NCBI GenBank assembly: GCA_004294095.1
Contig: RDZR01000026.1
Span: 16,411-80,410 of the forward strand
Source: Verrucomicrobiota bacterium
Lineage (GTDB): Bacteria; Verrucomicrobiota; Verrucomicrobiia; Verrucomicrobiales; Akkermansiaceae
Length of the DNA stretch: 64,000 nucleotides
Reading direction: 5' to 3'
The translations under genes were made by a program, and so were the position numbers. The notes beneath the pieces are model-generated. The model ran no database searches, was not told the origin of the DNA, and saw only the letters and a list, made by a program, of their open reading frames with translations. This document shows positions 20,022-43,927 of this stretch, piece after piece; within the stretch, counting starts at the first letter, position 1, and each line of letters begins with the position of its first letter.

Positions 20022-20041
20022 GGAGATTGGGTGGTTTGAAT

Positions 20042-20800: not shown

Positions 20801-20863
20801 GGGTCTCGGGCTTTTCGAGGAAGGAGTGCTGGGCAATGATGAAAGGAATGAACGTCGCCGTCA

Positions 20864-21457
20864 TCAAAGCACGGAATCAGGCACGGGAACTACCGCTTTT
20901 TTCCAAAAATCCATGGTCTTGGGCTCCAACAAGCCCTCTTCGTGGTCCCCAAACTCCAGGAGAGCATCAAGAAATGAAAGCGCGAGTTCGTGCCTTCCAA
21001 GGAGAGTCATTGACCGCAACATTCGGGTAATCCGCAGCTGATTGTGGTTACCCTTGCGAAGCCACGGATGGTAGTGAAGGGGCCAATTGTCCGATTCGTC
21101 ATATTGGCCAATCACCCTGAAGAGGACTTCTTTCACTTCGGGGCGGGCGGGATCGAGGCCAGGCATAAACCCAAAAAAATTCAGCATCTTGGAAATGGAT
21201 TTTTCGAAATTGTCCTGAAGCTTCGAATAACCAGCATGAGCTGGATCTAGGAAAATTTCCCTAATCTCGTCCGTAAGCACTGGAGCGTGGGGATTGAATC
21301 GACTGCTCACATAGAGCGGGAAAAGCCATTGGATGTAGTCGTGAGTTTCTTCAAGCCAAAGCTTATCCTTGGACAAAATCTCCTCAAGACTCCGCCCCAT
21401 GTGATCAGTGCCTGTGCCGAGGTAGAAATCGAGCAGCAACGTGTCTTCTTCGTTCAT
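20864..21457 (-). CDS. Opioid-growth-factor-receptor (OGFr_N)-like domain protein
   Basis: 'HDYIQWLFPLYVSSRFNPHAPVLTDEIREIF...MLNFFGF' matches the OGFr conserved-region signature (H.(Y/F)IQWLFPL...LT..EI..F). Confidence 0.75.
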   Translation of the reverse strand: MNEEDTLLLDFYLGTGTDHMGRSLEEILSKDKLWLEETHDYIQWLFPLYVSSRFNPHAPVLTDEIREIFLDPAHAGYSKLQDNFEKSISKMLNFFGFMPGLDPARPEVKEVLFRVIGQYDESDNWPLHYHPWLRKGNHNQLRITRMLRSMTLLGRHELALSFLDALLEFGDHEEGLLEPKTMDFWKKAVVPVPDSVL

Positions 21458-21990
21458 CTTAACTCATCCTCTCTGGCGAGAACTAATTCCATTTTGGCAT
21501 GGAGATCCGAAATCGAATCCATTCGGTCCAAAAACATTTTTCCGTCCAAGTGGTCGAGTTCGTGGAGGAAAACCCTTGCGGCGAGGTCGCGCAATTCACT
21601 TTCGATCAGCTCGCCATAACGATTCTGCCAACGGGCCAGAATTTTGGCAGGCCGAGTGATCAATGCTTTGTATCCGGGCATGCTGTAACAGGATTCCCAC
21701 GCCCGGTCGAGCTCTTCGGACTCCGAGAGAACTTCCGGATTGATAACCTCCATGGGCGGAACATCGGGAGCATTAGGGAAAAGTTCTCCTTTTCGCGACT
21801 GCATCACAAACAACCGGACGGATTCATTGACTTGAGGAGCGGCCAAACCGACGCCATTCACTCCGCCCATTGTTGCGAGGAGGTCATTGATAAGAATTTG
21901 AATCCGAGGATCTTCCGGATTGGGCACTTCGGGCGCACGTTCGCGAAGGATTGGATTTCCTATCAGAGCTACTTGGAGGATACGGGACAT
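21454..21990 (-). CDS. def: Peptide deformylase paralog
   Basis: All three PDF motifs are present: 'GVGLAAPQV', 'ESCYSMPG' (an EGCLS variant) and 'HELDHLDG'. There is an ATGA overlap with the OGFr-like gene. Confidence 0.85.
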   Translation of the reverse strand: MSRILQVALIGNPILRERAPEVPNPEDPRIQILINDLLATMGGVNGVGLAAPQVNESVRLFVMQSRKGELFPNAPDVPPMEVINPEVLSESEELDRAWESCYSMPGYKALITRPAKILARWQNRYGELIESELRDLAARVFLHELDHLDGKMFLDRMDSISDLHAKMELVLAREDELR

Positions 21991-21994
21991 TGGC

Positions 21995-23401: not shown

Positions 23402-23405
23402 AGTC

Positions 23406-24107
23406 TTATGGAGTGAGGATGATCTGGCGAAGGAGCGATTCTCCTTCTACAAACCATTGCGTGACGGGGTCTGTATCCGGGGCGAGAAGCCACTCACGGA
23501 TGCGATTCGCCAACTCATGATCGGCCAGTGGGCAGTATCGCTCCCAGCGGAGTGGCAGTAAGTTGCTCGCAAGCTTCAAAATTCGACTCCGGTTCTCTTC
23601 GGTATGCTCGCCCTTGCAGACTAGCTGGAGAATTTCCTTCCTGAGCGCGACCTGTTCATCAGTGAGTTGGGAATTGAGCCATTCCGTGAACTGATGCGGG
23701 CGCGCCTCGTTGCAGGCTTCGAGAATACTGAATAGGCCTACCTCCACGGAAACTGGGAGGCAATACGGCGAGGGTGTGGCCCCGCATCCTCGGTCGCCAT
23801 GGTGGCAATCGAGAAGCAGCCACTTCAAGCCGGGGTCGCTTTTGATGTCTCTGCCACCCTTCGCGCCATAGAGCCGCCAGAACGCGTCATGCCGCCATCG
23901 CGTCTGCGCTGAAGACTCTGTGGCGGTAGCAACTTGAAAAACATGCCGACAGCCGATCAGTGGTGATTCGAAAGGGGTGGATAGCCCCCACTTCTGCCTG
24001 ATCAGCCGCTCGTCAGGAATCGGCAATGCGTCAAAAACCTGCGCCAGTACGCTCGCCACCGGGCCGGAGCCAAGGATGATTCGTTGTCGATGCGGGCTTG
24101 CGGGCAT
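23406..24107 (-). CDS. Hypothetical 'GSGP' protein, partner B (paralog of 20042-20800)
   Basis: See partner A. 233 aa, with a 4-nt gap to REC-B and a 3-nt gap to the 875-aa gene. Confidence 0.6.
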   Translation of the reverse strand: MPASPHRQRIILGSGPVASVLAQVFDALPIPDERLIRQKWGLSTPFESPLIGCRHVFQVATATESSAQTRWRHDAFWRLYGAKGGRDIKSDPGLKWLLLDCHHGDRGCGATPSPYCLPVSVEVGLFSILEACNEARPHQFTEWLNSQLTDEQVALRKEILQLVCKGEHTEENRSRILKLASNLLPLRWERYCPLADHELANRIREWLLAPDTDPVTQWFVEGESLLRQIILTP

Positions 24108-24110
24108 GAC

Positions 24111-26738: not shown

Positions 26739-27466
26739 GGCCGAAGTGTATTAAGGAAATCCAGTTTCTCGGAGAGCGCCTTGGATGCGGATACCAGATT
26801 TTGCCCGCTCTTTGACGCTTTTACGACCTCCGCCGCCAATTTGGTGAGATCGTCCGGTGGTTTAACAATCGTGATGCGGTTGCATTCTTCTGTCTCGATT
26901 CCAGACGCCTCCATCAAAAGCCTTGCAGCCATAACTACCTCGTTGAGCCATGCGATGTCGGTTGATGCGCATGCACCTGCCTCGTCCCGAAGTGTCCGGA
27001 GCACTTGAAGCTCTTGATTCACAACTTGTTTTAGGAAATCCGCGTCGCATCGAGGAGGCAGAACGCCTGCATAAAATCTGACACGTAAAGACGGATAGCC
27101 TTCCAGTGGTCCTCCTTTACCAGTTGCGGCTAAACACCACTCGCTTCTTGTTGCCAATTTTGTGTCGCCCCCAGAGTAAAGAATAACGTAAGGCTCGGAA
27201 CCCGCCGGGCAATTCCTCAGGCACTTTATAAACCCTTGAATCTGGACAGAGTGCGAGTACTCGTTCTCCCAGTTCGTTAGAGTAAGGTCAGGATGTTCAC
27301 CTCGCTCATGCTCGTGTGTATGAGCGAAGACAAGATCAACTGGATCGAATGTTGGTGGGAAACTGCTGTCATGCTCGTGTGCAAAAACAATCTCAGTCAG
27401 ACCACCAGTGGGAAATGCATTCTTCCACGCTTCAACGCGACAGGTATCAATAATGTAGATCTTCAT
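26735..27466 (-). CDS. Hypothetical 243-aa protein (possible degenerate flavodoxin/receiver-like N-terminus)
   Basis: An ATG ORF with an ATGA overlap onto the 875-aa gene. The strand pattern 'KIYIIDT', 'DLVFAH', 'YVILYSGG' is suggestive only, and there is no K-P. Confidence 0.5.
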   Translation of the reverse strand: MKIYIIDTCRVEAWKNAFPTGGLTEIVFAHEHDSSFPPTFDPVDLVFAHTHEHERGEHPDLTLTNWENEYSHSVQIQGFIKCLRNCPAGSEPYVILYSGGDTKLATRSEWCLAATGKGGPLEGYPSLRVRFYAGVLPPRCDADFLKQVVNQELQVLRTLRDEAGACASTDIAWLNEVVMAARLLMEASGIETEECNRITIVKPPDDLTKLAAEVVKASKSGQNLVSASKALSEKLDFLNTLRP

Positions 27467-27470
27467 GTTT

Positions 27471-30335
27471 CTATTTTTTATCGAATGTAATTGTCTGTTC
27501 GTCTCTGTTCACCGTGAATTTGAAAGCTAGCTCTAAATGCCCATACAAAGATATTGGGGCCGTAGTCTCAAATTCGGTGATTTTGCAGAATGCATCCAGC
27601 AGGACTGATGCTTCTTCGCACTTATTGCCGCCCACTTTCTCCGAAAGCGATTTTTTCAGCTTCAGTGTTACACTGAAGCTCTTACTGTTAAAGTTACCTT
27701 CATAATTCAGTATGATCTTTTCTAGCAACGATTGACTTCGCAAACTGTGCGCGAGCTCGGCAAGAACGATGGAAGGGTCTTTGTCGCTGAAAAACGCACT
27801 CGATGGAAAATCGGCAGGCTCATCAAACTCTTCATTCCCAGATACAACAATAATCGGGATTTCCGTATTCATCCCACTCTCAGTCATCTTTACTGTGGCC
27901 GCCTGCAGCAGCCTATGTAGTCGTCCTGAGGTAAACCGAACTCCAACTCCCTTGTTAGCTCGCGTCTTGCAGAAAACAGCTTTCAGATTGGCAAAGGGGC
28001 CTTTTGTGCGCGGGCAGGCTTGTGCAAAATTTGGATCGCAATCGACATTTCTCTTCAAGCAGTCTGATTGGACATCGTTTAGCTGAGACAATTGCGCGAT
28101 CATCCAAACAAAAAGAAAATGATCAAGGGTGCTCTGCCCGAAGTAATCGCAGACAACTTTCGATGATGACTTTTTTCCATTTCTCAGAAATGCCAAAGCT
28201 GCGGGAAGCCATGATTCATCAATTCCGCTTTTCAGATCGCCAGAATAACCAAGGATTCGGAACATAGCCCGAAGACGATCCAAGTGATGATTGCAAAACC
28301 AAGCTTCGTGACCACTCACACCTCCAGGAACGTCTTCGAAAAATCTGCCCTCCTCAAACCACAGCGAGATTCGAAGTGCTGAATCGAGAATAGCGACTTT
28401 CTTCTCCTTTTCCCAAATAGATCGCAAGCGTGAGTTCATAGCTTTGACAGCAGCCATCTCTTTGATGGGATAAGAAGGAAGTCCCAGAACCCATGATTTC
28501 CATTCGCGTCCGAGAACTCCGCCGGTGCGCTGTGTTGAATCGCCCAGCCAATAATCCTGGGGAGTAGACTCAGTTTTTTCCCGGCCAAACAAATATCGGT
28601 CAACGATTTCCAGCTTGGAGCTGACATCCCTATACCTGGGGAAATTGGACCAATCAGCTTCCAAACAGGCTTGGATCCAGGGACGAACAATCGTTATTCT
28701 CACAGATTCGTCAGTTAGCAGAACAAGGATGTCGTCGTGAAGGGACTTGAGGGTTGAGTAAAAGACATCAAAGGAAGTAGTTTTGGGATCAAATGGCTTC
28801 GGAAACTTGAGCGCGAGGCAAAACAATGGCAGACTGCCAAAATAGATGGGAAGCATGAAGTAACTCGGATAGTCCGTCTCATCTCCCCAGCACCCCCGTT
28901 TAAGCTTTTTGTTCTTACTGTCTGAGGAATTCAGTCCAAAGACTTCTAATTCAAGTTCTTCAAGAGCAATATCGACAGCGGTTAACTGGTAGTCCGAAGC
29001 CCATTGCGTAGCAAAGGCCTGAACGCTGCTGGATCGGGCGAAGCATGTCTGAAAAACGCCATTTGCACTTGGATAATGAGTTTGCGCACGACTGGGATGC
29101 TCAATCAGCATGGGGTGCGTGGAGATAGTGGTATCAAGCCCTCGGAACAACGGCACGATCCGGGCAAACACAAGGCAAGGGTCGAAAGGAAGAATAACCA
29201 ATGCCTCTCTGCTCCCGGACGTAGATCCTTTTTGGTTTTTCGGATCATCGAACAATGAAATCATCATTGAGATTCGTTCGGAGTTCGAAACCACCGATTC
29301 GTTGATCGAACCTTCTATTACTGAAAAAAATGCATCGTTTAGAATTCCCGCCAAGGGATCGCGAGAGACAAGCACATGGCAGTCCATGGCTCCCCATCCC
29401 GTCTCATGATGTAGGGACAATTGCCGAATGTAACTGACGTCTTTGTTCTCCCCATCCTTCCGAACAAGCATTCCATTTGTTCGCCCCTCCTTTAGTACCT
29501 TATCGGCTTGTTCGCGGGTGAATCTAAGCCCGGATGGCATACCCTCAACGCCGCCAAATAGCTCGGTGGTTGTGTACGCCGCCTGGGTAGATTTAAAGAA
29601 CCATCCATCCTTTCGATTTGCGGGTGGCGGCTCTTCCCAAATTCCTCGTCTAAGTAGCCTATCTGCGATCTTCTCCGTCTTGAGCCATAAGGTTTTACCG
29701 TCCTCCGGAGGCCGTCCATGTTCTAAATAAATGGCACCCACTTTGCTAAGATTACTAACAACTGAGTCCCATGTAGAATAGACATCGACCAGAAGAATTG
29801 AAGGGCGAAGATCCAGAATAGCGTTAGTCAAGCATTGCTGGTCAAAGTGAAACCAGGTGTGAGCCATGATCAGAAGAGCCGTTGTCCCCCAAGCGTCCTC
29901 ATTATCTTCCTTATCGAATAGACTTCTCAATGCATGATCGGGGCATGGATCACATACACTGAATTGAGCTTTAGACTTGGCAGTTTTGGCGCTACGATTC
30001 GCCTGCTCAATTGCAGCTGGAGAACAATCCAGCCCGTAGAACTCCAATTTTGTTTTTGATGCGAATTTCGTGAGGTGATTCAGGAAACTTCCCTCTCCAC
30101 ATCCGTAATCGACGACCCGCGTGATATGAGGCAGGGCGGGATCACTGCCACATCTAGATAAAACTCGACACCATATCTGCTCTGCAGATTGTTTTTGCTT
30201 GTCTTCGAAATCGGGGAAAAGCTTGCTGAACATCTTCTGTGCATAAAGCATCTTCCCATAGTCATGGGGTTCGTCCCTTTCAAGTGTTAGAGTATCACAC
30301 ATAATATTATTTAAATAGATGTAGGGATGCTTCAC
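27471..30335 (-). CDS. 954-aa protein: N-terminal class-I SAM-dependent methyltransferase fused to ~750 aa of unknown function
   Basis: 'VVDYGCGEGSFLNHL' (motif I) is followed by 'LEFYGLDCSPAAIEQA' (motif II acidic residue). I recognise nothing in the remainder. The GTG at 30335 overlaps the upstream gene by 29 nt. The alternative ATG at 30302 leaves a 4-nt gap. Confidence 0.65.
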   Translation of the reverse strand: MKHPYIYLNNIMCDTLTLERDEPHDYGKMLYAQKMFSKLFPDFEDKQKQSAEQIWCRVLSRCGSDPALPHITRVVDYGCGEGSFLNHLTKFASKTKLEFYGLDCSPAAIEQANRSAKTAKSKAQFSVCDPCPDHALRSLFDKEDNEDAWGTTALLIMAHTWFHFDQQCLTNAILDLRPSILLVDVYSTWDSVVSNLSKVGAIYLEHGRPPEDGKTLWLKTEKIADRLLRRGIWEEPPPANRKDGWFFKSTQAAYTTTELFGGVEGMPSGLRFTREQADKVLKEGRTNGMLVRKDGENKDVSYIRQLSLHHETGWGAMDCHVLVSRDPLAGILNDAFFSVIEGSINESVVSNSERISMMISLFDDPKNQKGSTSGSREALVILPFDPCLVFARIVPLFRGLDTTISTHPMLIEHPSRAQTHYPSANGVFQTCFARSSSVQAFATQWASDYQLTAVDIALEELELEVFGLNSSDSKNKKLKRGCWGDETDYPSYFMLPIYFGSLPLFCLALKFPKPFDPKTTSFDVFYSTLKSLHDDILVLLTDESVRITIVRPWIQACLEADWSNFPRYRDVSSKLEIVDRYLFGREKTESTPQDYWLGDSTQRTGGVLGREWKSWVLGLPSYPIKEMAAVKAMNSRLRSIWEKEKKVAILDSALRISLWFEEGRFFEDVPGGVSGHEAWFCNHHLDRLRAMFRILGYSGDLKSGIDESWLPAALAFLRNGKKSSSKVVCDYFGQSTLDHFLFVWMIAQLSQLNDVQSDCLKRNVDCDPNFAQACPRTKGPFANLKAVFCKTRANKGVGVRFTSGRLHRLLQAATVKMTESGMNTEIPIIVVSGNEEFDEPADFPSSAFFSDKDPSIVLAELAHSLRSQSLLEKIILNYEGNFNSKSFSVTLKLKKSLSEKVGGNKCEEASVLLDAFCKITEFETTAPISLYGHLELAFKFTVNRDEQTITFDKK

Positions 30336-31170
30336 ATTCCGCTATAAGAGTTGCCTCACTTTCGACTCCGGCAGAAGGGAATCCAAGATTCAAAATGGAC
30401 GTGGTCCTGGCCCCAAAAATTTCAACGGCGCGCATTGATCCCAATTCAACGTAATGCCTACAAACAGATGGAAAAAGGCTAACAAAGGCAGTGGCGCCTG
30501 TTCGAGTGGTTGCCTCGTATATCATTTCTGCAACTTCTCCTGTGCAATCCGCTGACTTTCCCGTGCAATACGCTTCCTGCAATGCTCCGGAAAGATCCGG
30601 AAGTAAACAGACGACATTCCCATTTGACTCCTCTATCCGTGCAGATGGAGGAAGCTTGCCGTCCGCAATCAACTGTGCCATGCGATTTTTGTGACGATTT
30701 CGTAAGTTCATTTCACCATAAAACGGTGCGGTCGATACGGCGTTCGATACAGGAGGCTTCGGCTCTAGCAACGCAACGCTGTCAGAGTGTAAAGCGAGCG
30801 TTTCAGAATAGACCTGTGGTAACCCTATTTGGCCCGTATAGAAGCTGGACCGATTCACGTCTTTCGGGACGTATTGCCAATCGTTTACCGCAATCATCAC
30901 ATGCTTTTGTGGGGTCTCAAGTTCCGCCATCAGTTTCAACGCGAGTTTCCAAGTAAGAATGGGAAAGTGACCATAAGCCTCGAAAAATGGTTCTATAACC
31001 GGGGTTATGGGCTCACCTTGAACGCAGGAAACGAGGCAACCTTTTGACTTGTCATACATCAGCAGAAAATGCCCTGCCTGGAAAACAACGGATTGCGCAT
31101 CCCCTACAGCCGCGATCGTCAAATCGCGAAGAGCTTCGTAGTCTTTAGGAAAATGGTGCGTAAGATTCAT
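30307..31170 (-). CDS. Hypothetical 287-aa protein translationally coupled to the cysteine desulfurase
   Basis: An ATG ORF with an ATGA overlap onto the desulfurase stop. It contains a Cys pair, 'CTGKSADCTGE'. No known family and no PP-loop SGGxDS. Confidence 0.55.
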   Translation of the reverse strand: MNLTHHFPKDYEALRDLTIAAVGDAQSVVFQAGHFLLMYDKSKGCLVSCVQGEPITPVIEPFFEAYGHFPILTWKLALKLMAELETPQKHVMIAVNDWQYVPKDVNRSSFYTGQIGLPQVYSETLALHSDSVALLEPKPPVSNAVSTAPFYGEMNLRNRHKNRMAQLIADGKLPPSARIEESNGNVVCLLPDLSGALQEAYCTGKSADCTGEVAEMIYEATTRTGATAFVSLFPSVCRHYVELGSMRAVEIFGARTTSILNLGFPSAGVESEATLIAECEASLHLFK

Positions 31171-32303
31171 TGGCTGGTGGCTGGAGTGAGATTAAACGCC
31201 TGCTCCACCATTGTGGCGGCAGCGACAATCTCTTCTGAGGTGGTATGGCAACTGAGGCTGAAACGCAAAGTGCCGTTGGCACGTTCCTCCGAAAAGCCCA
31301 TCAATCTGATAACATGTGAGGACTTCCCCCCACTGGAACAGGCGGCCCCTGCCGAAACTGCCACACCAAAACGGTTGAGAGCGGCGACTAGATCCGCAGC
31401 GTTGCGTCCGGGACAGTAGAGGCTAATGGTATTTGAAAGGCGAAGGCTGAGACGGCCATGGACCTCAGAGCCGGGGATTTTCTCCAATAGATTGATCTCC
31501 AGCTGATTTCGGAGCGATTCTACACGAGACCCTGCTTCGAGACTTCGCTGGAGCAGGCTTGCGGCAACACCGCAACCGACAATGGAAGGTAGGTTCTCGG
31601 TCCCGGCCCGAAGTCCCTGTTGTTGATGGCCTGGAGCGGGAATGCGGCGGTGGAAATCACCAACGGGGCGCTGTTTCAGGAAGAGGATTCCGCAGCCTGG
31701 GGGTCCGTGAAACTTGTGAGCTGACAAGCTGGCCGCAGCACAGTCGAGGCTATCAAGATGCAATGGTAATTTTCCCACTGCCTGGATCGCATCCACGTGG
31801 AGTAGCGATCCGGCCTCACGGCAAATTGCTGAAACGGATGCGATGTCGGCAATGACACCTGTTTCATTATTGGCGAATCCGACGGAAACCAAAGAAGGCA
31901 GTTTGCTTGCCGCCCATCTCAAATAATCTAGATCGAGGGCACCCTCGGCATCAACTGGCACGCACAACACTTTTCTCCCATCTGCCCAACGCTCGGCCGC
32001 CCGAAGGACAGCACTGTGCTCCACTGAGGAAATTAGAATTTGGCGGATGTCGGGCGACAACAAACATGAAAAACCCAAGTTGATGGACTCTGTGCCGGAT
32101 GCCGTGAATACCAGACTGGCTGGTGAGGCAATACCGCATGCGGAAGCGGTGGTGTAGCGCGCACTCTCAAGGGCTTCCCTTGCGTTCCGGCCCATTTCGT
32201 GGGCGCTGGAGGGGTTGCCCCAGTTCTGACTGAGCGTATTCGTAACTGCGTCGATAACCTCGGGCAGCGGTGCGGTCGTTGAATTGTTGTCCAAGTAAAT
32301 CAT
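31167..32303 (-). CDS. Cysteine desulfurase (NifS/IscS-type class-V aminotransferase)
   Basis: 'IYLDNNSTTAP', 'GNPSSAH', 'FTASGTESIN', PLP-lysine 'SAHKFHGPPGCG', and the active-site loop 'SAGAACSSGG'. I chose the ATG at 32303. Confidence 0.88.
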   Translation of the reverse strand: MIYLDNNSTTAPLPEVIDAVTNTLSQNWGNPSSAHEMGRNAREALESARYTTASACGIASPASLVFTASGTESINLGFSCLLSPDIRQILISSVEHSAVLRAAERWADGRKVLCVPVDAEGALDLDYLRWAASKLPSLVSVGFANNETGVIADIASVSAICREAGSLLHVDAIQAVGKLPLHLDSLDCAAASLSAHKFHGPPGCGILFLKQRPVGDFHRRIPAPGHQQQGLRAGTENLPSIVGCGVAASLLQRSLEAGSRVESLRNQLEINLLEKIPGSEVHGRLSLRLSNTISLYCPGRNAADLVAALNRFGVAVSAGAACSSGGKSSHVIRLMGFSEERANGTLRFSLSCHTTSEEIVAAATMVEQAFNLTPATSQ

Positions 32304-32968
32304 TTTTGATGCAAAAAAGCCAGAGTGTGTTTCCGAATCGAATCTCGGTAGCTGATTTCGTCTGCGCGTTTGTCTGGGATTTGGTGGAAAATTGCTGAGG
32401 GAAAGCAGCACGCTAAGTGTTTAGAGAATGAGATTGGATGAAGTTCATCATTTGGCATTCCCAAGATCATTACGGGTTGTTGAATAGACCGCAGTTCGGT
32501 AAGGCTAAACCCCGGATCGAGGCCCAATAGAGAATGAAGCTGTTTGGGAATCTCTGATTTAGCGGAGGCAAAATCCACACTACATTCAGGCGTAGGCCAT
32601 GCGGGCCTGAGAAGTATGAGTTTGGTTACCATTGAAATGCTGGCTAAAGCGAGTTTGACGGCTACAAGGGCTCCGAGTGAAAGGCCACCCATTGCATGCG
32701 GTTGTTGAACCACCTGTTTGGAGAACCAAACTTGATCTTCAAGTAATTGAGATAACGTTGGCGATGTACAATCAGTCATTTCGGTGCTTCCATGCCCCCG
32801 GAAATTCATACTGTAGAGACATATTCCCGGCAGCGGCGAGAGAACTTCGAACACCTGATTTGCTGATCCACCCAATCCATGCTGAAAGACTAACGGATTT
32901 CCTTTACCTTCTTGGAGATACCTATGCGCATCACCAAATTCATGTTTTGTAGATTTCCAGGAAGGCAT
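32300..32968 (-). CDS. Alpha/beta-fold hydrolase
   Basis: 'LVFQHGLGGS' (HG oxyanion), 'GGLSLGALVA' (GxSxG), and a C-terminal Asp/His region 'NDELHP'. There is an ATGA overlap with the desulfurase. Confidence 0.7.
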   Translation of the reverse strand: MPSWKSTKHEFGDAHRYLQEGKGNPLVFQHGLGGSANQVFEVLSPLPGICLYSMNFRGHGSTEMTDCTSPTLSQLLEDQVWFSKQVVQQPHAMGGLSLGALVAVKLALASISMVTKLILLRPAWPTPECSVDFASAKSEIPKQLHSLLGLDPGFSLTELRSIQQPVMILGMPNDELHPISFSKHLACCFPSAIFHQIPDKRADEISYRDSIRKHTLAFLHQK

Positions 32969-34780: not shown

Positions 34781-35377
34781 TTAGGTATTCAGTCGATCAA
34801 GTGCCCGGCGGAGTTCCTCGGTTAACTCGTGTTTGAAAAACCAATCGCGGAGTGCCTCATCGCCGACTTCGGTGGAGAGATTTTCAGCAGCGCCCACTTG
34901 TTCGGGGTAGCACTCTCCCGCCTTGAATCCATGGAGTCCATCCGCCGCACGGATGGTGAAATGCTCGGTGACTCCTTCATAGAGATCACGGAGGGATTCG
35001 TTCGCATGGACTTCGCGGAGCGTCTCCGGGTGGGTCATCCGGTGAAGATCTTCATGGATGAGGGTGGCGATTTCCTGGCCGACATCTGCTTTCAGAACGT
35101 GGGCGGGGTCTTCAAGATAGGTCGAATACCCGAGAATGCCTTCTGTCGATTTGATCCCGGCCTCGCGGGCGCTCTCGACGAAATCGTCTCGTTTTTCGAG
35201 GAGATCGGGGATTTCCCGGAGTTTTTCGAATTTCTCGGGGGCTATTGAGTTCGCATACTCTGCATGAAGCCGTCTTTCCGCGATTTCACGCGGGATGTCG
35301 TCCAGCGTTTCAAGCCGACGATCCGACATTTGAGATTCGCTGGCTTCGGAACTGAGTTCGCTGGACTGGGTTTTCAT
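34781..35377 (-). CDS. Hypothetical HExxH protein (putative zincin-like metallopeptidase/effector)
   Basis: 'TLIHEDLHRMTHP' with a downstream 'EGVTEHF'. There is an ATGA overlap with the HerA-like ATPase stop. I chose the ATG at 35377. Confidence 0.55.
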   Translation of the reverse strand: MKTQSSELSSEASESQMSDRRLETLDDIPREIAERRLHAEYANSIAPEKFEKLREIPDLLEKRDDFVESAREAGIKSTEGILGYSTYLEDPAHVLKADVGQEIATLIHEDLHRMTHPETLREVHANESLRDLYEGVTEHFTIRAADGLHGFKAGECYPEQVGAAENLSTEVGDEALRDWFFKHELTEELRRALDRLNT

Positions 35378-37839
35378 GGTTTCGGTTTGTAGGCGTGGGT
35401 TTGAAACGCTTCCCGGAGACGAGTCAACGTGCCGCGACTCAGGCCGGCAGCCGTTCCAAGAGAGATCAGAAAACACAAGGGGCCAGCGGGAAGTGATGAA
35501 ATCATTCCCGGTTGATCGCAGATCTCACGAGTAGCCCAGTCCCAAGTGGCGGACTCGCTTTCCTGGAGAACGCGCTGAAGCTCGGCGAGGCGGCGTTGCA
35601 GGTGGGCGGGGTTGGCTCCCGAGAGTTGGGCGGAACAATTTACGGTGGTGCAGACCGGGCAGGCTGAGATTTTACACACCGGATTTTCCACAGAAGGCAG
35701 CGGCAAATGAGGCAAGGGAAGCCTCCCGTAGGTGATGGCTGGATTTGGCAGGCGCAGGCGGAATGGGCGAGTCCTGCGATCCGAGCGGAGGATGGCATCA
35801 CCCACAGGCAGAGCACCGAGTAGGTCGATCTGGTTGGCTGGGAGTCCGGCGGCCCGTCCGGCGAGTTCGCGGTCGGCGGGATGGTCAAGGCGATGAAGAA
35901 TCTTCGTGCCGGTATTGGCAATTACAGATGGAACAAGTGCCGACGGGGTTTGATCGACGATGATCATGCCGACGCCCAGACCGCGCATTTCGGCAAGCAT
36001 GTTGGCCAAGCTTTCGACGGCTTGATTGCGGGAGGCGTTGGCGGCGGTTTCGGGCACGGCTTTCAAGAGGCGGTGAGCTTCCTCAATCAGGAGGGCGTGA
36101 CGAAGTGAGTCACTCTGCCCCTCAAGCCTCCAATGATGCCGCAATTGCAGAGTGATCAATCCCATGATCAGGGCTTGGGACGGCGCATCCGTGAGGGCTG
36201 ACAACTCGATAATGGTGGGACGTTTCACCAAGCTGGCGATGTCGAGCCCCAGAGATGATTTAAGTTCGGGAGCCAACGGCCCTTCGAGCAACCGACGCAT
36301 ACGAAGCAGTAAACCGGCACGAATATTTCCCGTGATTTCAGCGCCGTATCCAAATTTTGACGCACTGCGGTCAATTTCATCGACCAGATCAGCGAGAGTG
36401 GGCGGCGGTCCATGGGGAACCAACCCGGCGAGGTTCCAGCCATGGTTTCGATAGGTCTGCTCAATCGCGGTGGCCAATACCTCCGGCATGGGAGCAACCA
36501 ACTCGAAAGCGGATGCAAACACCGTGAAGAGGGCGGTCGTGTGCTCAGCAAGTCCGACGCCGGGGGGCAAGGCCATCGGGTTCAACGAGAGGCGTCGGGA
36601 CTTCGGATCGCCGATGGCCCACACGTCAAGGTCTGCTCCAATCTCGCTATTCAGAAGCCGGCGATAGCCGGTTTTCAATCCGGGTTCGATGACCAGCCAT
36701 GGGATCTGGTGTTCACGCCATAATTCAAGCAACAGGTGTTCGCAGGTCACACTCTTGCCGGATCCCGTCATGCCGGCCACGAGCAAATGGCGACAAAGTT
36801 CATCAACGCCGATTTCAAGCCAAGCTCCAGGCTTACCTTGATCGTTGAGGATTTTGCCGGAAACGATGGTCCGACTCTCGGTTCCCGGAACTGTGGCTGT
36901 CGCGAATATGGCCTGCATCACAGGACCGTGTGGAGAACTGGTCTCTCTGATGCTTGTTTCCACGACAAAGCCGGGCATCTCCCGACGAGGTGGACGAGTG
37001 AGTGCAGCGGCCTCAGATGTCCGAAGGAAAGTCAAAGACCTTGGGTCACTGGCATTCTGCCATCTGATCGGCTCCGGTTGTCCTCCATCCGCTGAGTAGC
37101 AACCATGAATGAGTGAGCATGCCTGATTAAAGACTCTCTGGTCGGACGCCGCGACCAGAGTGCGCACCAGCCAACCGCCTTCCTGAAAGGATGAGGTGGC
37201 CCGGGACTTAGCCGCCTCCACAAGTTTAAGGTAGCGACTCGATCCAGTATGATTGTCCTTCTCCAAACCGCCTCGTGACAGATACTCGTCCCGGATATAC
37301 TGCTCATCGCGGCACAAGCGACTCCACTCGGCTTCAATCGAAGTTCTGGGTAACGCTTTAGCAATCACAAGAACCATGAATTCATGGCCTAAAAGCGTGC
37401 GTATGACAGGCTCAAGTCTGGCCGAAGGCCCGAGACCTGAATGCCCACCCATGGCACCACGAAAGGTAAGCGCATTGATTCGCTTGTCCAAACTGGAAAA
37501 ATCACCAGAAGGTTCAAGAATGGCACCCGTTATGTGAGTGCCAACCGATTCGGAAGCACCTAAGACAAGATCTGGCAGAACCAGTTTCCACGAAACTCCA
37601 TCTTCTTCTGCAACGGCGCAAACTCCCCAAGTCAGGCCAAGAGCCCACCATGAGCGCACCACTGACTCCCATGCCAGATCCGAGTCAAGTTCAGCATGTC
37701 CTGGGGCTGCGGCGAGTCCTCTCAACCGCCATGCAGACAAGCCATCGACCGGAAAGAAATTGGGCCAAATGTTAGACGGAATTTCACCTCGCAGCATGGA
37801 GGTGGCATCGGCAAGAGATTGGTTCAAAAGCAGGCTCAT
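35374..37839 (-). CDS. HerA/FtsK-like (DUF87-type) P-loop ATPase, 821 aa
   Basis: Walker A 'VAGMTGSGKS', Walker B-like 'HALLIEEAHRLL', and 'GMIIVDQTPSAL...TKILHRL'. A long N-terminal non-ATPase region and a Cys-rich C-terminus 'CKISACPVCTTVNC' flank the ATPase core. Confidence 0.75.
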   Translation of the reverse strand: MSLLLNQSLADATSMLRGEIPSNIWPNFFPVDGLSAWRLRGLAAAPGHAELDSDLAWESVVRSWWALGLTWGVCAVAEEDGVSWKLVLPDLVLGASESVGTHITGAILEPSGDFSSLDKRINALTFRGAMGGHSGLGPSARLEPVIRTLLGHEFMVLVIAKALPRTSIEAEWSRLCRDEQYIRDEYLSRGGLEKDNHTGSSRYLKLVEAAKSRATSSFQEGGWLVRTLVAASDQRVFNQACSLIHGCYSADGGQPEPIRWQNASDPRSLTFLRTSEAAALTRPPRREMPGFVVETSIRETSSPHGPVMQAIFATATVPGTESRTIVSGKILNDQGKPGAWLEIGVDELCRHLLVAGMTGSGKSVTCEHLLLELWREHQIPWLVIEPGLKTGYRRLLNSEIGADLDVWAIGDPKSRRLSLNPMALPPGVGLAEHTTALFTVFASAFELVAPMPEVLATAIEQTYRNHGWNLAGLVPHGPPPTLADLVDEIDRSASKFGYGAEITGNIRAGLLLRMRRLLEGPLAPELKSSLGLDIASLVKRPTIIELSALTDAPSQALIMGLITLQLRHHWRLEGQSDSLRHALLIEEAHRLLKAVPETAANASRNQAVESLANMLAEMRGLGVGMIIVDQTPSALVPSVIANTGTKILHRLDHPADRELAGRAAGLPANQIDLLGALPVGDAILRSDRRTRPFRLRLPNPAITYGRLPLPHLPLPSVENPVCKISACPVCTTVNCSAQLSGANPAHLQRRLAELQRVLQESESATWDWATREICDQPGMISSLPAGPLCFLISLGTAAGLSRGTLTRLREAFQTHAYKPKP

Positions 37840-38726
37840 GGTGATTGGGGGTCAATGATGGTTTGAAAATGCGGTTGGTGCAGAGAATCACGAACTTTAT
37901 TGAGTTCACGATTCACCCAGGGAACACCGGCAAAGTATAGCCAGAGAACAGCAAATAAAAGAGAGCAGGATCCAATGATCGCCAAGCGGCGTGCATTGGG
38001 CTGACAGGGACAAATCGAGGCTCCAGTTCGCTGACAAACAATCGCATTCACGAGGAAGACTCCCCTGCGCCAAGATCCGATCGCACGGATCCGGTCGCCC
38101 TCCATCAAAGAGCCACCGTGCAGGTGCCCTTTCAATCTGAGTTGAGTTTCGCGCTCGTCGATTTCCCGCAGTCTCGCCATCACTACAGGCATCGGTTCTA
38201 CGACGTGACGCCCGTTGAGCGCCGCAGTGAGGTGCCAACTCTGCATCAAACGGTTTGAAAAAATGAAGCGAAGCACCATTAACGCAACTACAGAAAAGCC
38301 TAGTGCCATTAAAAATCCATAAGTCTGCCACACCACGATAGCTATCGCACAAGGAGTGGTCAAAAGTGCTAGACCCCAAACCGGGATCGCAAGCCAACGC
38401 CACGGATCAAAGTCCATCGGTTCGTGCGGAGCTTGACGGACAATGATTACTCGCCCCTCGATTTCTGCTGACTGAAGAAAAGATCCACTCTTTCTGCTGC
38501 GCGACGATCCAAGAGCCAGAGTGGTCGGTGGCTGAGTAGCAGTCAAAGCCTGCGATTCGCTGGGAAAGAGCGAATTTCTTAGGTTTCCAGCCGCGTCAGG
38601 TGACCTTGTTAGGCTGTCCAGCGGAACGTGTGAGTCATGGCCACACTCCGAGCACAATCCTTCGATGGCCGACCGTCGCCCACAAGAGGAACACCGGATT
38701 GCGATGCGTGGACGATCAGTGGTCAT
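37836..38726 (-). CDS. Zinc-ribbon membrane protein (296 aa)
   Basis: A strong SD (GAAGGAGGGG) lies 5 nt before the ATG at 38726. It has 'CSSCGRR...CSECGH' and 3 TM helices. There is an ATGA overlap with the ATPase start. Confidence 0.6.
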   Translation of the reverse strand: MTTDRPRIAIRCSSCGRRSAIEGLCSECGHDSHVPLDSLTRSPDAAGNLRNSLFPSESQALTATQPPTTLALGSSRSRKSGSFLQSAEIEGRVIIVRQAPHEPMDFDPWRWLAIPVWGLALLTTPCAIAIVVWQTYGFLMALGFSVVALMVLRFIFSNRLMQSWHLTAALNGRHVVEPMPVVMARLREIDERETQLRLKGHLHGGSLMEGDRIRAIGSWRRGVFLVNAIVCQRTGASICPCQPNARRLAIIGSCSLLFAVLWLYFAGVPWVNRELNKVRDSLHQPHFQTIIDPQSP

Positions 38727-39033
38727 ACCTGCCCCTCCTTCTATTTCGACGATCATGATGCGGAGGCCATGGCTCGGACGAGCTACAGTCCTGGTATCTG
38801 ATATTTGATCTTCCAAAGATGCCACGCCAAAGAATAGAAAGACCCAAAAAACTTATAGCCAGTGCCAACAGAGGGACTGAAATCTCGTCGAGCATCGACA
38901 ATGCGACTAATCCCAACGGATGACTCGACGTTAGCAGAACCATCAGCAATACCGTTGGCCAACGCATAAAACGCGGACCACGACCGAGCCAACACCAGCA
39001 GGAAAGAGAGATAGTAAGGATGATTGGGAGCAT
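38716..39033 (-). CDS. Small hydrophobic protein (105 aa), first ORF of the HerA module
   Basis: An ATG ORF with 2-3 hydrophobic helices. It overlaps the next gene by 11 nt. A GGCGTGACGGG site sits ~24 nt upstream of its ATG. Confidence 0.4.
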   Translation of the reverse strand: MLPIILTISLSCWCWLGRGPRFMRWPTVLLMVLLTSSHPLGLVALSMLDEISVPLLALAISFLGLSILWRGIFGRSNIRYQDCSSSEPWPPHHDRRNRRRGRYDH

Positions 39034-39083
39034 AAATATTTCTGGTTCGATATTAAGGCGTGACGGGAATTGTAATCGGGTAA

Positions 39084-39359
39084 ATTATTAACTCGCGCAG
39101 TATTTACTATGCGCATGGCATAAGAATTGCTGGATATACTTTTCTATGGAAAAACGAGACGCGAGGAAACCGCGGTCCAGATCTCAATCCTGACGAATAT
39201 TTCAACCGCGACGTGAAGACCGAACTCGCCAAACGCCCGGAACGTCGAACCAAAGGAAAGTGGCGGGAGAGTGTGGAGGGCGCGCTCGAAAGTATCGCAA
39301 ATCAGCCTGAGCGGATAGTCAGCTACTTCAAGTCCAGACATATAAAATATGCCATTTAA
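39084..39359 (+). mobile_element. 3' remnant of an IS630/Tc1-mariner-type DDE transposase gene
   Basis: The frame ending in TAA at 39357-39359 translates as '...RGNRGPDLNPDEYFNRDVKTELAKRPERRTKGKWRESVEGALESIANQPERIVSYFKSRHIKYA'. This matches the conserved C-terminal 'P.LNP.E' block of IS630-family transposases. There is no start codon and no upstream DDE part. Confidence 0.6.
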
Positions 39360-39361
39360 AT

Positions 39362-40240
39362 ATTGCGCGGGTTAATATCAGGCAGTGTTTCTCCGCGCGA
39401 ATCATTCAAGGCAATAGCGAGAGTCTAGCTGGACGGGTTGCAACTTTGGAAATCGGAGGGTTCGATTTGGATGAAACAGGAACCGAAAATTGGGAACGCC
39501 TCTGGCTACGTGGAGGGCACCCGCCCTCTTTCTTGGACGTTACCGACGAGGGCGCGATGGAGTGGAGAGCCAACTATCTGGAACGGTTATTCGGACGGGA
39601 TCTTCGGATTTGGTCAAATCTGAGCCTTCACCCCGCACAAACTCGGAAGTTGATGACTCTGATAGCGGACTGCACAGGCAGGGCGTGGAACCATTCCGCC
39701 GCAGCGAAGATCCTAGATTTGGATGTGAAGACGATCCAACGCTATGTGGATATTTTGGAAGCCGCCTATCTGGTGAGACTCTTGCCTCTGTTAGAAGTCA
39801 ATATACGCAAACGCCTTCGTAAAGCTCCTACCATCCATGTCCGCGACAGTGGAATCGCTCATGCCATGCTTGCAATTCAAACCCGCGAACGTTTGGAAAT
39901 TCATCCGCGTATGGGCCAAACATGGGATAGTTTCTGCATTGATCAGATCATACGGCTCACAGAAACGCGGCCTGAATACTGTCACACCTTTTCGGTTCAA
40001 AGCGGATCTGAGATCGATTTGATTTTGGATCGACCGGACGGACGCTATGGATTTGAAATTAAAAGTTCGGAGCACAGTCGTCCAAAAGCGGCAGACAAAG
40101 AGTGGATCAATCTGTTAGATCTCTGCTGTCTTCACCAAGTGAGACGCGGAAAGGGCAGCTACGATTTGGGCGATGGATTGTTTTCAACAGGAATAGAGCA
40201 AATACCTCAGATCGCGGCGAAAATTCGCGGAGGAATTTAG
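39362..40240 (+). pseudogene. N-terminally truncated DUF4143/COG1373 AAA+ ATPase gene (P-loop domain missing)
   Basis: The open frame begins mid-domain with 'SESLAGRVATLEIGGFDL...RANYLERLFGRDL...TIQRYVDILEAAYLV...GSEIDLIL'. The AAA+ N-terminal half is absent, and homology starts immediately after the transposase remnant. Confidence 0.6.
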
Positions 40241-42769: not shown

Positions 42770-43927
42770 TCAGTTCTCGAAGGTGTAGCCGAGTTTGATC
42801 GCTTGCTTGCGAGTGGTTTCGACCATGACTTGATCCAGTGTTTTGTCTCCGGACTTCGCTTGTTTTTGCTGCTCGGCTTCGACAAAGGCGGTGCGCTCTG
42901 CGTTGAGCGTGTTGATTTGTGATTGAATTTCTAACCGTTTTCTAGCAGCTTCATCTACGCGTTGTTGAATCTCTTCTGGCTTCAAATTTTTCAGCTCCGC
43001 TGGTAACTCGCTGGCGGGGAGTTTGCTAAGATCCACCTTTTTTTCGCGCACGGCATCCACCAGATCCCAGCCACTATTATGGTAGTTTCTGCTAGATTTC
43101 GAGATCGCCCGTTCCACCGCAGCACCAGCTTCGCTTTCGAGAGCGGCGGCTTCATCGGCTTGTCTTTGCTTGGCTGCACCAGCTTTGAAGTGAACTCCGT
43201 AACCGAGGTATGTTTTATTGAGCTCTAGGCCAAGATCGCTGATTTTTTGATCTTGTGGAGCGACGATGTGACAAACGGCGCGGTCTTGATCGATGATCAT
43301 GAAGTCGCCATTTGCGAGTGCAGCACCATCATGCCATGAGCCGGAAATGCCCTCATCGCGCGGTCCACAGTGAATGGTATTGATGATAACTCCTTTGGAA
43401 AATCCTTCTTTGCAAGCATCTCTAACATCGACTGAACCTTGGGTAAATTCCTCATTACCGGCGATGAAAATGGCTTTGTAAGTCTTTGCGTCTTGATCCC
43501 ATTTTAGATCCGTGATGGCACGCTGAATCACCGCACCGCAGTATTCTTCACCACCGTTGGTGGAAAGGGCATTGAGTTGCTTGCTCACTTCATCGAGGTC
43601 TCGTGTGAGTGGTTGCACTTGCCGGATGTATTGGCTGCGGGCGGATTGATTATTATTTCCATATTCATACAATGCCACCTCTACGAAGGGCGCTTCCCCA
43701 TCGCGGCGTGCATCGATGAAGGTGTTGACGACTTTCCATAATTGCGATTTCGCTTGATCGATGAGTCCGTCCATACTGTTAGAAGTATCTAACAAAAGGG
43801 CAATTTGCACTTTATGATTGGCGGCCGGTGTGTCCACCGTTGGTTGATCCACTGGAGCTTTGGCAACCAATGATTGAGTGAGGGTGATGATGCTGATGAT
43901 ACCTAACAGAGTTGTTTTTGTTTTCAT
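42770..43927 (-). CDS. Secreted von Willebrand factor type A (vWA) domain protein
   Basis: A signal peptide, the MIDAS motif 'LLLDTSNSMDG', and a C-terminal coiled region. Confidence 0.8.
   Translation of the reverse strand: MKTKTTLLGIISIITLTQSLVAKAPVDQPTVDTPAANHKVQIALLLDTSNSMDGLIDQAKSQLWKVVNTFIDARRDGEAPFVEVALYEYGNNNQSARSQYIRQVQPLTRDLDEVSKQLNALSTNGGEEYCGAVIQRAITDLKWDQDAKTYKAIFIAGNEEFTQGSVDVRDACKEGFSKGVIINTIHCGPRDEGISGSWHDGAALANGDFMIIDQDRAVCHIVAPQDQKISDLGLELNKTYLGYGVHFKAGAAKQRQADEAAALESEAGAAVERAISKSSRNYHNSGWDLVDAVREKKVDLSKLPASELPAELKNLKPEEIQQRVDEAARKRLEIQSQINTLNAERTAFVEAEQQKQAKSGDKTLDQVMVETTRKQAIKLGYTFEN

Follow-up and report, generated by a model that had tools for sequence, protein, structure and literature searches.

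A conserved four-gene cassette of Verrucomicrobia and related phyla pairs a FtsK-HerA-superfamily ATPase of predicted VirB4-like architecture with a putative toxin-family zincin

The window analyzed here is a 64,000-nucleotide stretch of a contig from an Akkermansiaceae bacterium of the phylum Verrucomicrobiota (GenBank RDZR01000026.1, positions 16,411 to 80,410, assembly GCA_004294095.1), and the subject of this report is a cassette of four consecutive open reading frames (ORFs) on its minus strand, at 34781-39033, which we call g1 to g4 (Table 1). The frames were read from the window sequence with the start sites that give proteins of 105, 296, 821 and 198 residues. The g1 stop and the g2 start share 11 nucleotides (ATGACCACTGA), a GGAGG lies 5' of the g2 ATG (at 38726), and the g2/g3 and g3/g4 junctions are both four-nucleotide ATGA overlaps (37836-37839 and 35374-35377). 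A preliminary description made from the letters of this DNA had reported the same four frames and the same three overlaps, and both hold on inspection of the sequence. The cassette is a genuine, conserved four-gene operon without a name, spread across Verrucomicrobia and related phyla. Comparative sequence analysis gives solid grounds for viewing its predicted products as an ATPase complex anchored in the membrane, with a motor of the FtsK-HerA superfamily and a VirB4-like architecture, together with a toxin-family zincin whose catalytic residues appear intact.

Table 1. Positions of the cassette genes, their predicted features and the neighboring genes discussed in the text (aa, amino acids; MAG, metagenome-assembled genome; loci other than the window are named by our own L numbers).
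Feature	Sequence	Position	Strand	Description
g1	window	38716-39033	-	105 aa; small integral membrane protein, Verrucomicrobia-specific
g2	window	37836-38726	-	296 aa; membrane protein with zinc ribbon and three transmembrane segments
g2 zinc ribbon	window	38634-38693	-	aa 12-31; CxxC-x9-CxxC; sequence, PDB profile search
g2 linker	window		-	after zinc ribbon; variable
g2 transmembrane hairpin	window	38256-38393	-	~aa 112-157; hydropathy
g2 OB-like beta domain	window	37992-38234	-	~aa 165-245; weak profile matches
g2 third transmembrane segment	window	37914-37985	-	~aa 248-271; hydropathy
g3	window	35374-37839	-	821 aa; soluble P-loop ATPase, four regions
g3 region 1	window	36940-37839	-	aa 1-300; N-terminal domain, predicted VirB4-like fold
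g3 region 2	window		-	after N-terminal domain; short linker
g3 region 3	window	35740-36867	-	~aa 325-700; HerA/DUF87-type motor
g3 Walker A	window	36751-36774	-	aa 356-363; GMTGSGKS; sequence
g3 Walker B	window	36070-36096	-	aa 582-590; LLIEEAHR; sequence
g3 region 4	window	CxxCx4C 35635-35661; C789 35473-35475	-	C-terminal Cys4 and helical tail
g4	window	34781-35377	-	198 aa; acidic zincin, predicted gluzincin type
g4 HEDLH	window	35042-35056	-	aa 108-112; sequence
g4 YEGVTE	window	34961-34984	-	includes E134; sequence
Intergenic stretch 5' of g1	window	39034-39445	.	412 bp; presumed operon promoter region
TraG-like ATPase genes	related loci	L001 2837-4711; L007 3545-5776; L028 6979-8802; L029 6287-8686; L030 4878-7103
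Probably truncated DUF4143 gene	window	39446-40240	+	264 aa
vWA gene	window	42770-43927	-	385 aa; secreted type
Downstream operon	window	20000-32411	-	long, tightly packed
Downstream operon	L027	13220-22406		syntenic with window
ABC_tran/radical-SAM operon	related loci	L001 1-1753; L005 1-5174; L007 10078-13937; L030 13702-20495
Interrupted cassette	L006	13-7139		Verrucomicrobiales MAG
JAB-ThiF and AAA ATPase genes	L029	13616-16909		between g3 and g4
g2-g3-g4 core and flanks	L012	2784-12903		Hydrogenedens MAG
Coiled-coil and vWA gene pair	L019; L020	2740-5441; 2745-5446		5' of g2-g3-g4
g2-like and g3-like genes with TerY-P triad	L018	5352-13436		Binatia MAG
g3 relative and HEGTH protein	L017	334-3311		Chloroflexi MAG

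Searching proteins with g3 brought up 83 relatives of the full-length type at 41-91% identity, nearly all of them 800-830 residues long, from metagenomes and from genomes labeled Verrucomicrobiota. Neighborhoods were compared over 15 loci, the window and 14 related ones, which form a sample rather than a census; for several of them the genes were called with our own ORF finder. Eleven distinct verrucomicrobial contexts, three of them with genes inserted, have the order g1-g2-g3-g4, so that the conservation of gene order, which had been proposed as a check on the module, is borne out. It is uninterrupted in the window, L001, L003, L005, L007, L008, L009, L027 and L028, and kept with insertions in L006 (~4 kb between g3 and g4), L029 (~6 kb between the same two genes, including tightly packed JAB-ThiF and AAA ATPase genes) and L030 (extra small genes and a DUF1810 gene). 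In L006, g3 is seemingly frameshifted near its 3' end and three ORFs (121, 631 and 470 residues) precede g4; either a mobile insertion or faulty assembly could account for this interruption. Among the loci examined, g1 was seen in Verrucomicrobiota only. Outside that phylum, one Hydrogenedentota locus (L012) and two loci from Thermoguttaceae (Planctomycetota; L019, L020) carry a g2-g3-g4 core without it, and in Binatia (L018) just a g2-like and a g3-like gene were found. Because the same gene order stands on many independent contigs with an ATPase identity of 41-91%, the arrangement is more than chance. Most loci have different flanks, so that local synteny does not account for the arrangement and the cassette is a unit in itself.

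The searches of IMG/VR, INPHARED and PLSDB returned no close relatives of the cassette, only distant DUF87 proteins. Carriage by phages or plasmids is therefore unsupported. These distant proteins lie mostly on Streptomyces linear plasmids in uninformative neighborhoods. Two such plasmids (L025 and L026, from Streptomyces avidinii and Embleya) encode DUF87 proteins of ~1050 residues that are 30-35% identical to the g3 motor region. Proteins of this kind are common on large Streptomyces-type linear plasmids, and each is preceded by a protein of ~120 residues and surrounded by unannotated genes.

The preliminary description had called g3 a HerA/FtsK-like ATPase with a Walker A motif, a DUF87-like core, a Cys-rich tail and an N-terminal region that it left unassigned. 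The motor stands as described: g3 reaches the Pfam cut-offs for both DUF87 (24.9 bits, cut-off 23.2) and HerA_C (22.0 bits, cut-off 22). The motifs GMTGSGKS, IEEAHR and VDQTPS are invariant across an alignment of 17 g3 homologues, which means that the P-loop core, a DEAH-like Walker B and the sensor Gln are all present, and K362, E586/E587, Q630 and many further motor residues do not vary either. Given this invariance of the motor residues, the enzyme should be active. The tail is also confirmed, with C727, C730, C735 and C789 invariant in the 17 homologues and conserved helices in the C-terminal 100 residues.

By PDB sequence and profile search, the closest solved relatives of g3 are HerA proteins (E 7e-12 to 9e-6, over residues 540-700 only), with FtsK and TrwB-type proteins far behind. 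No VirB4/TrwK protein appeared among the PDB sequence matches, even at E <= 10; the CagE_TrbE_VirB, TraC and AAA_10 models gave no match at E <= 1 in Pfam and NCBIfam; and hhalign of the g3 alignment against TrwK aligned the P-loop alone (E 0.054, probability 1%). In NCBIfam the best matches, to a serine-rich-protein ATPase domain and to CedD, all fall well short of their cut-offs. CedD is the top-scoring functionally characterized model (E 3e-16, 59 bits, cut-off 600) and aligns over residues 534-687 only, and the HerA equivalogs reach 20-38 bits where 800-970 are required (HerA_antiphage, 38 against 800). Among the PADLOC hidden Markov models (HMMs), g3 matched generic ATPase models only (HerA, mad8, SspH and DndH; mad8 at E 3e-18).

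The N-terminal ~300 residues indeed gave no sequence match, but their predicted fold can now be placed. When an AlphaFold2 (AF2) model of residues 1-322 (predicted local distance difference test score, pLDDT, 80) was compared with the PDB by Foldseek, the best 14 matches were all TrwK/VirB4 chains of plasmid R388 (E 1e-6 to 3e-5, probability 1.0, TMq 0.37-0.43), and the next match, at E 3e-3, was unrelated. Since structures holding only the VirB4 C-terminal domain, and other P-loop ATPases, were not matched, the similarity is to the VirB4 N-terminal domain. As modeled, the N-terminal domain of g3 has the VirB4/TrwK N-terminal-domain fold. In R388 this domain (residues 15-400) makes the VirB4 dimer contacts, is wrapped by VirB3 and serves in membrane docking (PMC9259494). 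There is a published precedent in the crenarchaeal Ced DNA import system, whose CedB and CedD join a VirB4-like N-terminal domain to a HerA-clade motor (PMC11868833). Hydropathy analysis found no transmembrane helix in g3. The earlier assignment is thus right about the FtsK-HerA superfamily and the HerA-like P-loop, and too narrow about the whole: g3 is not a plain HerA, and should be better described as VirB4/CedB-like than simply HerA/FtsK-like.

The two genes upstream of the motor encode its candidate membrane partners. In the alignment of g1, a W-C-W motif (residues 13-15), a GP and W25 are invariant and the C-terminal tail is basic and aromatic; hydrophobic helices score above threshold at residues ~27-45 and ~51-69, while the N-terminal stretch that holds W-C-W looks hydrophobic by eye and scored below threshold. 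Homologues of g1 lie 5' of g2 at every complete verrucomicrobial cassette locus. The protein matched nothing in Pfam, NCBIfam or PADLOC, and hhalign profiles revealed no similarity to TrwM/VirB3 or TrwL/VirB2. Its likeness to VirB2 and VirB3 is by analogy of size, hydrophobicity and gene position only; R388 has the order virB2 (101 residues), virB3 (104 residues), virB4 (823 residues).

The zinc ribbon of g2 matches L37e-type ribbons in PDB profiles (E ~6e-4), and C15, C25 and C28 are invariant in the g2 alignment. Residues 176-218 weakly match several IF1 S1/OB entries (E 4e-3 to 2e-2, PDB profile search) and the barrel region is conserved, a weak indication that an OB-like (oligonucleotide/oligosaccharide-binding-like) barrel may lie between the second and third transmembrane segments. 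From the distribution of charges, the ribbon and the OB-like domain would both be cytoplasmic. The g2 family was found only beside g3-type ATPases.

The last gene had been described as coding for an acidic protein of 198 residues with HEDLH and a downstream Glu. We confirm this reading (D+E 44, K+R 24; the Glu is E134), and the signature is conserved in the family. When 1.84 billion representative proteins were searched with the family profile, 1016 members came up at E <= 1e-3, and HExxH is retained in 144 of the 148 best. Across an alignment of 127 members H108, E109 and H112 never vary, and conservation is 90% or higher at E134, G135, T137 and Y157. The AF2 model (pLDDT 89.5) has gluzincin topology, with strands 59-61 and 93-95 ahead of a helix at 99-114 that carries H108, E109 and H112, followed by a helix at 127-145 that bears E134. 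As modeled, g4 fits the gluzincin pattern of an HExxH helix and a third-ligand Glu, and metal binding and catalysis are predicted. A Pfam scan of g4 found no metallopeptidase or toxin model, and the fold search against solved and viral structures gave no significant match; the top PDB matches, all weak at E > 0.5, are zincins, namely ArdC (E 0.59), collagenase H and anthrax LF. An identity of g4 with ArdC was considered and set aside, as the fold match is non-significant and hhalign aligns the HExxH helix alone.

The wider family of g4 is one of delivered proteins. The g4 protein is homologous, with E values down to 1e-15, to C-terminal domains of eCIS_core and PAAR proteins (eCIS, extracellular contractile injection system), and shares HExxH...EGxTE with them. 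Pfam annotation of the 127 aligned members found an N-terminal eCIS_core (DUF4157) domain in 11, PAAR in three and DUF4280 in one, with other domains in a few members, among them one peptidoglycan-binding domain, and about 22 of the 148 best members start with a signal-peptide-like sequence. Since domains of this family stand behind eCIS_core, PAAR/DUF4280 or signal peptides, the family is normally delivered outside the cytoplasm of its producer. We conclude from these domain arrangements that g4 belongs to an uncurated metallopeptidase family that is otherwise delivered by Sec, the type VI secretion system (T6SS) or eCIS; like the g2 family, it has no curated model. By contrast, g4 itself has a disordered N-terminal stretch of ~25 residues and neither a signal peptide nor a delivery domain, and its cassette-linked relatives likewise lack a delivery domain.

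A motor-zincin pairing is also seen further afield. In a Chloroflexi MAG (L017), a 756-residue g3 relative (31% identity) is followed after 6 nucleotides by a gene for a 233-residue HEGTH protein with a weak match to DUF6782, a putative metallopeptidase, which suggests that the pairing recurs with the zincin swapped for one of a second family.

The company of the cassette varies. In five of the 11 verrucomicrobial contexts (L001, L007, L028, L029 and L030) a gene for a TraG/VirD4-like ATPase of 600-800 residues lies directly upstream on the same strand. These proteins match TrwB_AAD_bind, TraG-D_C and DUF87; unlike typical VirD4 coupling proteins they have no transmembrane segment, and they share a conserved N-terminal domain of ~300 residues. 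A common N-terminal domain for the TraG-like neighbor and g3, in the manner of a CedB/CedD-type paralogy, was tried and dropped, as hhalign aligned the P-loop domains only (probability 65%). Integrases lie near the cassette in L007, L028 and L030. The genes of L007 and L030 run from an integrase through a membrane-type metallopeptidase (M48- or M50-like) and the TraG-like ATPase to g1-g4, in islands of ~9-13 kb that abut an ABC_tran/radical-SAM/SBP_bac_5/permease operon, which also neighbors the cassette in L001 and L005. That the cassette often sits on mobile or variable islands is a solid observation. The adjoining operon (ABC_tran, a radical-SAM protein of ~410 residues, SBP_bac_5 and BPD_transp) varies in orientation among these four diverged verrucomicrobial genomes, and may be an insertion hot-spot or a functional neighbor.

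Elsewhere the flanks are of other kinds. A DUF932 gene is near the cassette in L029; in L003 AAA and Fer4_12 genes and a kinase lie upstream, and in L005 a PP2C gene lies downstream. Upstream of the Hydrogenedentota core (L012) lie genes of ubiquitin-like conjugation, for a Prok-E2_E protein and a JAB-ThiF fusion, and downstream of it come DUF1257, a Fer4_12 radical-SAM activase and an AAA protein; the conjugation and AAA genes are tightly packed with the cassette. In the Binatia locus (L018) the g2-like gene and a g3-like gene for a 941-residue ATPase are followed by a complete TerY-P triad of vWA, PP2C and a Ser/Thr kinase fused to an FGE-sulfatase domain, with no g4-like zincin. No complete triad was found at the other loci, and the vWA gene of the window has no adjacent PP2C or kinase gene. 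The planctomycete loci (L019, L020) are neighbored by vWA, insertion sequence (IS), SNF2, PLD and Fic genes. Two genes 5' of their g2-g3-g4 core, for a 517-residue coiled-coil protein without domain matches and for a protein with a transmembrane segment, a long coiled coil and a vWA domain, are probably part of the system in its planctomycete form.

In the window itself there is no TraG-like gene, integrase or tRNA. The intergenic stretch 5' of g1 is presumed, from its position, to be the operon promoter region; a sigma-70 consensus scan of it gave nothing convincing, promoter and terminator scans were uninformative, and a search of it for a conserved small ORF found none. It is bounded by a probably truncated gene, which retains only the C-terminal DUF4143 part of an AAA-type ATPase and would be the trace of a rearrangement at the point where the cassette ends upstream. 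The cassette has a GC content of 55.5% against 51.9%, within the top 1.3% of sequence windows, and its GC at third codon positions (GC3) is within the range of the other genes. With an ordinary GC3 and neither a tRNA nor an integrase nearby, recent horizontal acquisition is unconvincing for this copy. Some 3.7 kb upstream of the cassette, past a two-component system, lies the vWA gene, whose product has a signal-peptide-like N-terminus and a C-terminal coiled coil and shows no detectable similarity to the cassette-linked vWA proteins of planctomycetes.

The window copy is syntenic with L027, and the shared stretch includes a downstream operon with an SSF transporter and a cysteine desulfurase. 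This operon encodes the SSF transporter, an alpha/beta hydrolase, the cysteine desulfurase (Aminotran_5) and then six proteins without Pfam matches (287, 954, 243, 875, 233 and 468 residues, the second with an N-terminal methyltransferase), and it is kept beside the cassette in L027 at 25-73% identity. Its cysteine desulfurase is the probable source of the lone strong PADLOC match to SspA/DndA (~5e-95) in a pooled scan of neighboring genes. The operon could be an unrecognized modification, defence or biosynthetic system.

We take the cassette to be, probably, a new and compact machine for transport or conflict. The preliminary description had suggested a conflict or translocation module with a zincin; that envelope stands, and the balance now tilts towards translocation of a type IV secretion system (T4SS)/Ced-like kind. 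At a probability of roughly 40%, we favor a translocation module of the inner membrane, compact and T4SS/Ced-like, by which the zincin g4 would be exported or delivered. In such a machine g2, with its three transmembrane segments, and in Verrucomicrobia also g1, would form the membrane part, with the ribbon and OB-like domain of g2 on the cytoplasmic side. The motor g3 would be soluble and presumably hexameric, and would dock on g1/g2 through its VirB4-like N-terminal domain; in R388 the equivalent domain of VirB4 binds VirB3 and the VirB8 tails. ATP hydrolysis in the intact HerA/DUF87-type core would then drive a macromolecule into or across the membrane. The likeliest substrate would be the co-translated zincin, since g4 has no signal peptide and yet other members of its family are exported by Sec, T6SS-PAAR or eCIS. 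Where a TraG/VirD4-like ATPase adjoins, it could act as a substrate receptor, and the whole might amount to a minimal toxin-export or toxin-delivery module that serves inter-microbial conflict. Outward transport is preferred because VirB4/CedB motors are known only in membrane translocation and the contexts found for the g4 domain are all of exported or injected proteins. That the products form a complex, that the motor docks at the membrane, what is carried and in which direction are steps that we infer. The tight translational coupling, the conservation over three phyla, the invariant catalytic residues of g3 and g4 and the recurrence of a motor-zincin pair in Chloroflexi count in favor of the reading as a whole.

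Several observations weigh against this translocation reading. The P-loop domain of g3 is nearest in sequence to HerA proteins, anti-phage ones included, and not to VirB4, and the likeness to VirB4 is structural only, at a TM-score of ~0.4 in a model built from 17 sequences. In g2, the ribbon and the OB-like domain suggest nucleic-acid binding rather than a receptor for proteins. The cassette encodes no outer-membrane or periplasm-spanning component, though its hosts are diderm, and no obvious immunity gene, and six of the 11 contexts, the window among them, have no TraG-like gene. In other phyla the company is of a defence kind (vWA genes, the TerY-P triad, AAA ATPases, an E2 with a JAB-E1). 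VirB4-type ATPases are not known to suffice for the export of a substrate. A stronger form of the proposal, which we regard as unlikely, holds that the cassette is an unrecognized minimal protein-secretion system of the Planctomycetes-Verrucomicrobia-Chlamydiae (PVC) group, sister to or derived from T4SS/Ced. Such a system would need no more than an ATPase of VirB4 architecture and one or two small membrane proteins to export a signal-less zincin toxin, with the TraG-like coupling ATPase as an optional aid.

The HerA-like P-loop and the defence-type neighbors could also be read together, as signs of an anti-phage or abortive-infection system in which a HerA-type ATPase sits at the membrane, g2 senses invading nucleic acid through its ribbon and OB-like domain and the activated g4 cleaves a host or phage protein, which halts the infection; analogues would be HerA with a Sir2 or DUF4297 effector, or ATPase-protease pairs such as IetAS. 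Besides the motor, which is closest to HerA proteins and to the PADLOC HerA and mad8 models, the variable regions with defence-type neighbors at L012, L029, L019, L020 and L018 speak for defence, several of the HerA structures nearest to g3 are ones that we take to belong to defence complexes, and toxin domains are often common to secreted toxins and defence effectors. TerY-P-like modules are cited as stand-alone defences, and VirB4-like ATPases with vWA flanks occur in CoCoNuT loci (PMC11090510). We nevertheless hold defence to be somewhat unlikely. Like the preliminary description, which could match the cassette to no named system, we found no known architecture that fits: the PADLOC-DB v2 HMMs gave no match to g1, g2 or g4 at E <= 1, and those matched by g3 are generic. 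A VirB4-like N-terminal domain and a frequent TraG-like neighbor are foreign to known HerA defence systems, all other contexts found for the g4 family are of exported or injected proteins, and the cassettes of the window and L027 lie in a conserved chromosomal neighborhood with no obvious defence island.

If the motor instead moves DNA, the cassette might be the conjugation-like or Ced-like transfer apparatus of a small integrative element, with g3, alone or with the TraG-like ATPase, pumping DNA through a g1/g2 channel, the ribbon and OB-like domain of g2 holding the DNA, and the zincin as an accessory such as an ArdC-like establishment protease or a cell-wall opener. ATPases of the VirB4/CedB/CedD type are known solely from DNA and protein translocation machines (PMC11868833; PMC9259494), and the compact integrase/TraG-like/g1-g4 islands of L007 and L030, beside the same ABC/radical-SAM/SBP operon, would suit such an element, as would the DUF932 gene near the cassette in L029, the distant g3 relatives on Streptomyces linear plasmids and the peptidoglycan-binding domain in one g4-family member. 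The best, though weak, fold match of g4 is the ArdC metalloprotease of plasmid R388; as set out above, it falls short of significance. Neither a relaxase nor a replication gene was recognized, nor a pilin or any protein like VirB6 or VirB8, g1 is unlike VirB2 and VirB3, the planctomycete and Hydrogenedentes cores have no recognized mobile-element transfer genes alongside, and the window and most contexts lack the TraG-like gene and the integrase while g4 is nearly always kept, which makes DNA transfer quite unlikely in our estimation. A related point concerns the preliminary description, for which an ATPase that grouped with conjugative VirB4/TraG-type proteins inside a recognizable conjugation locus would have told against the module. 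We do find a VirB4-like N-terminal fold, a TraG-like neighbor in five of 11 contexts and integrases in three, so that a T4SS connection is in part real; however, the loci are not of that kind, since the P-loop matches no VirB4 model, no relaxase or mating-pair-formation genes were recognized in the window and the 14 related loci, and the window has no TraG-like gene. The kept chromosomal synteny of the window and L027 would fit yet another role, the housekeeping of membrane proteins, in which the ATPase extracts or unfolds a membrane or secreted substrate, possibly g1 in analogy to the dislocation of pilin by VirB4, and the zincin processes it, as with MycP in type VII secretion or in FtsH-like quality control. 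VirB4 has been reported to extract pilin from the membrane, and secretion ATPases with dedicated proteases exist, such as EccC with MycP. The patchy distribution and variable flanks, the loss of g1 outside Verrucomicrobia while g4 is kept, and the toxin-type domain contexts of the g4 family make this role very unlikely.

If the translocation reading is true, the cassette would be the smallest T4SS-related transport machine yet; if a defence role is, it would be a new wiring of a HerA-type motor to a protease effector in immunity. The minimal-secretion proposal, if true, would add a new type of secretion system with its own new toxin family. VirB4-type ATPases are, to our knowledge, the one universal T4SS component and are known outside full T4SSs only from the archaeal Ced/Ted DNA importers. 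The cassette also defines a large zincin family of ~1000 representative clusters that has no Pfam model and serves as eCIS and T6SS cargo, and it offers a way into the mobile islands of Verrucomicrobia and Planctomycetes, groups in which, in our general impression, little is known of mobile elements and secretion systems.

Of the systems to which the cassette can be compared, Ced shares the joining of a HerA-clade P-loop motor to a VirB4-type N-terminal domain, and it works with small and polytopic membrane proteins, without need of VirD4 or outer-membrane parts (PMC11868833). In contrast to Ced, however, g3 scores only 59 bits against the CedD family threshold of 600 and has no transmembrane helix, whereas about half of CedB, CedD and VirB4 proteins have one. 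No CedA/VirB6-like polytopic protein and no pilin was recognized by sequence in the cassette; g2 has only three transmembrane segments and an unrelated domain plan, and g1, though small and hydrophobic, has no sequence similarity to VirB2 or VirB3. Ced is archaeal and has no zincin, whereas the cassette belongs to diderm bacteria and nearly always comes with one. The resemblance to VirB4/TrwK extends to length (821 against 823 residues), to the plan of an N-terminal domain and a C-terminal ATPase with a matching N-terminal fold, to the small transmembrane-protein gene upstream, as with virB2/virB3, and to the TraG/VirD4-like neighbor in five of 11 contexts. Unlike VirB4, g3 matches no VirB4 model in Pfam or NCBIfam and so does not belong by ATPase-domain sequence; VirB6, B8, B9, B10, B11 and a relaxase were not recognized at the cassette loci, and g1 is unrelated to TrwM and TrwL.

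The HerA-effector anti-phage systems (SIR2-HerA, DUF4297-HerA) and archaeal HerA-NurA resemble the cassette in the motor, which matches DUF87 and HerA_C and is nearest to HerA among solved structures, and in the translational coupling of an ATPase gene to a putative effector gene. They differ in that the g3 N-terminus is VirB4-like and not the HAS barrel expected of a HerA, and in the partners, which are a zincin rather than a Sir2 or a nuclease, and dedicated membrane proteins, with no match to NurA, Sir2 or DUF4297. Type III-A CoCoNuT loci encode 'EccE3-HerA', VirB4-like FtsK/HerA ATPases with a distinct N-terminal domain, a small helical partner and TerY-like vWA flanks (PMC11090510), and the planctomycete and Binatia versions of the cassette likewise adjoin vWA or TerY-P genes. 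Nevertheless, no EccE3 structure is among the top 50 fold matches listed for the g3 N-terminus, no McrBC or CoCoNuT genes lie nearby, and neither the zincin nor the zinc-ribbon membrane protein is described for those loci (PMC11090510). The eCIS and T6SS PAAR metallopeptidase toxins have C-terminal domains homologous to g4, which in contrast stands alone at 198 residues. MADS was rejected, as only mad8 was matched (by g3, at 3e-18) and unrelated neighboring ABC ATPases match mad8 as well, a sign of low specificity; the MADS model needs MAD6-8 (bioRxiv 10.1101/2023.03.30.534895). The cassette thus lies outside VirB4 systems by sequence and locus, outside HerA by N-terminus and partners, and outside Ced, MADS and all PADLOC systems, and it partly resembles each of them.

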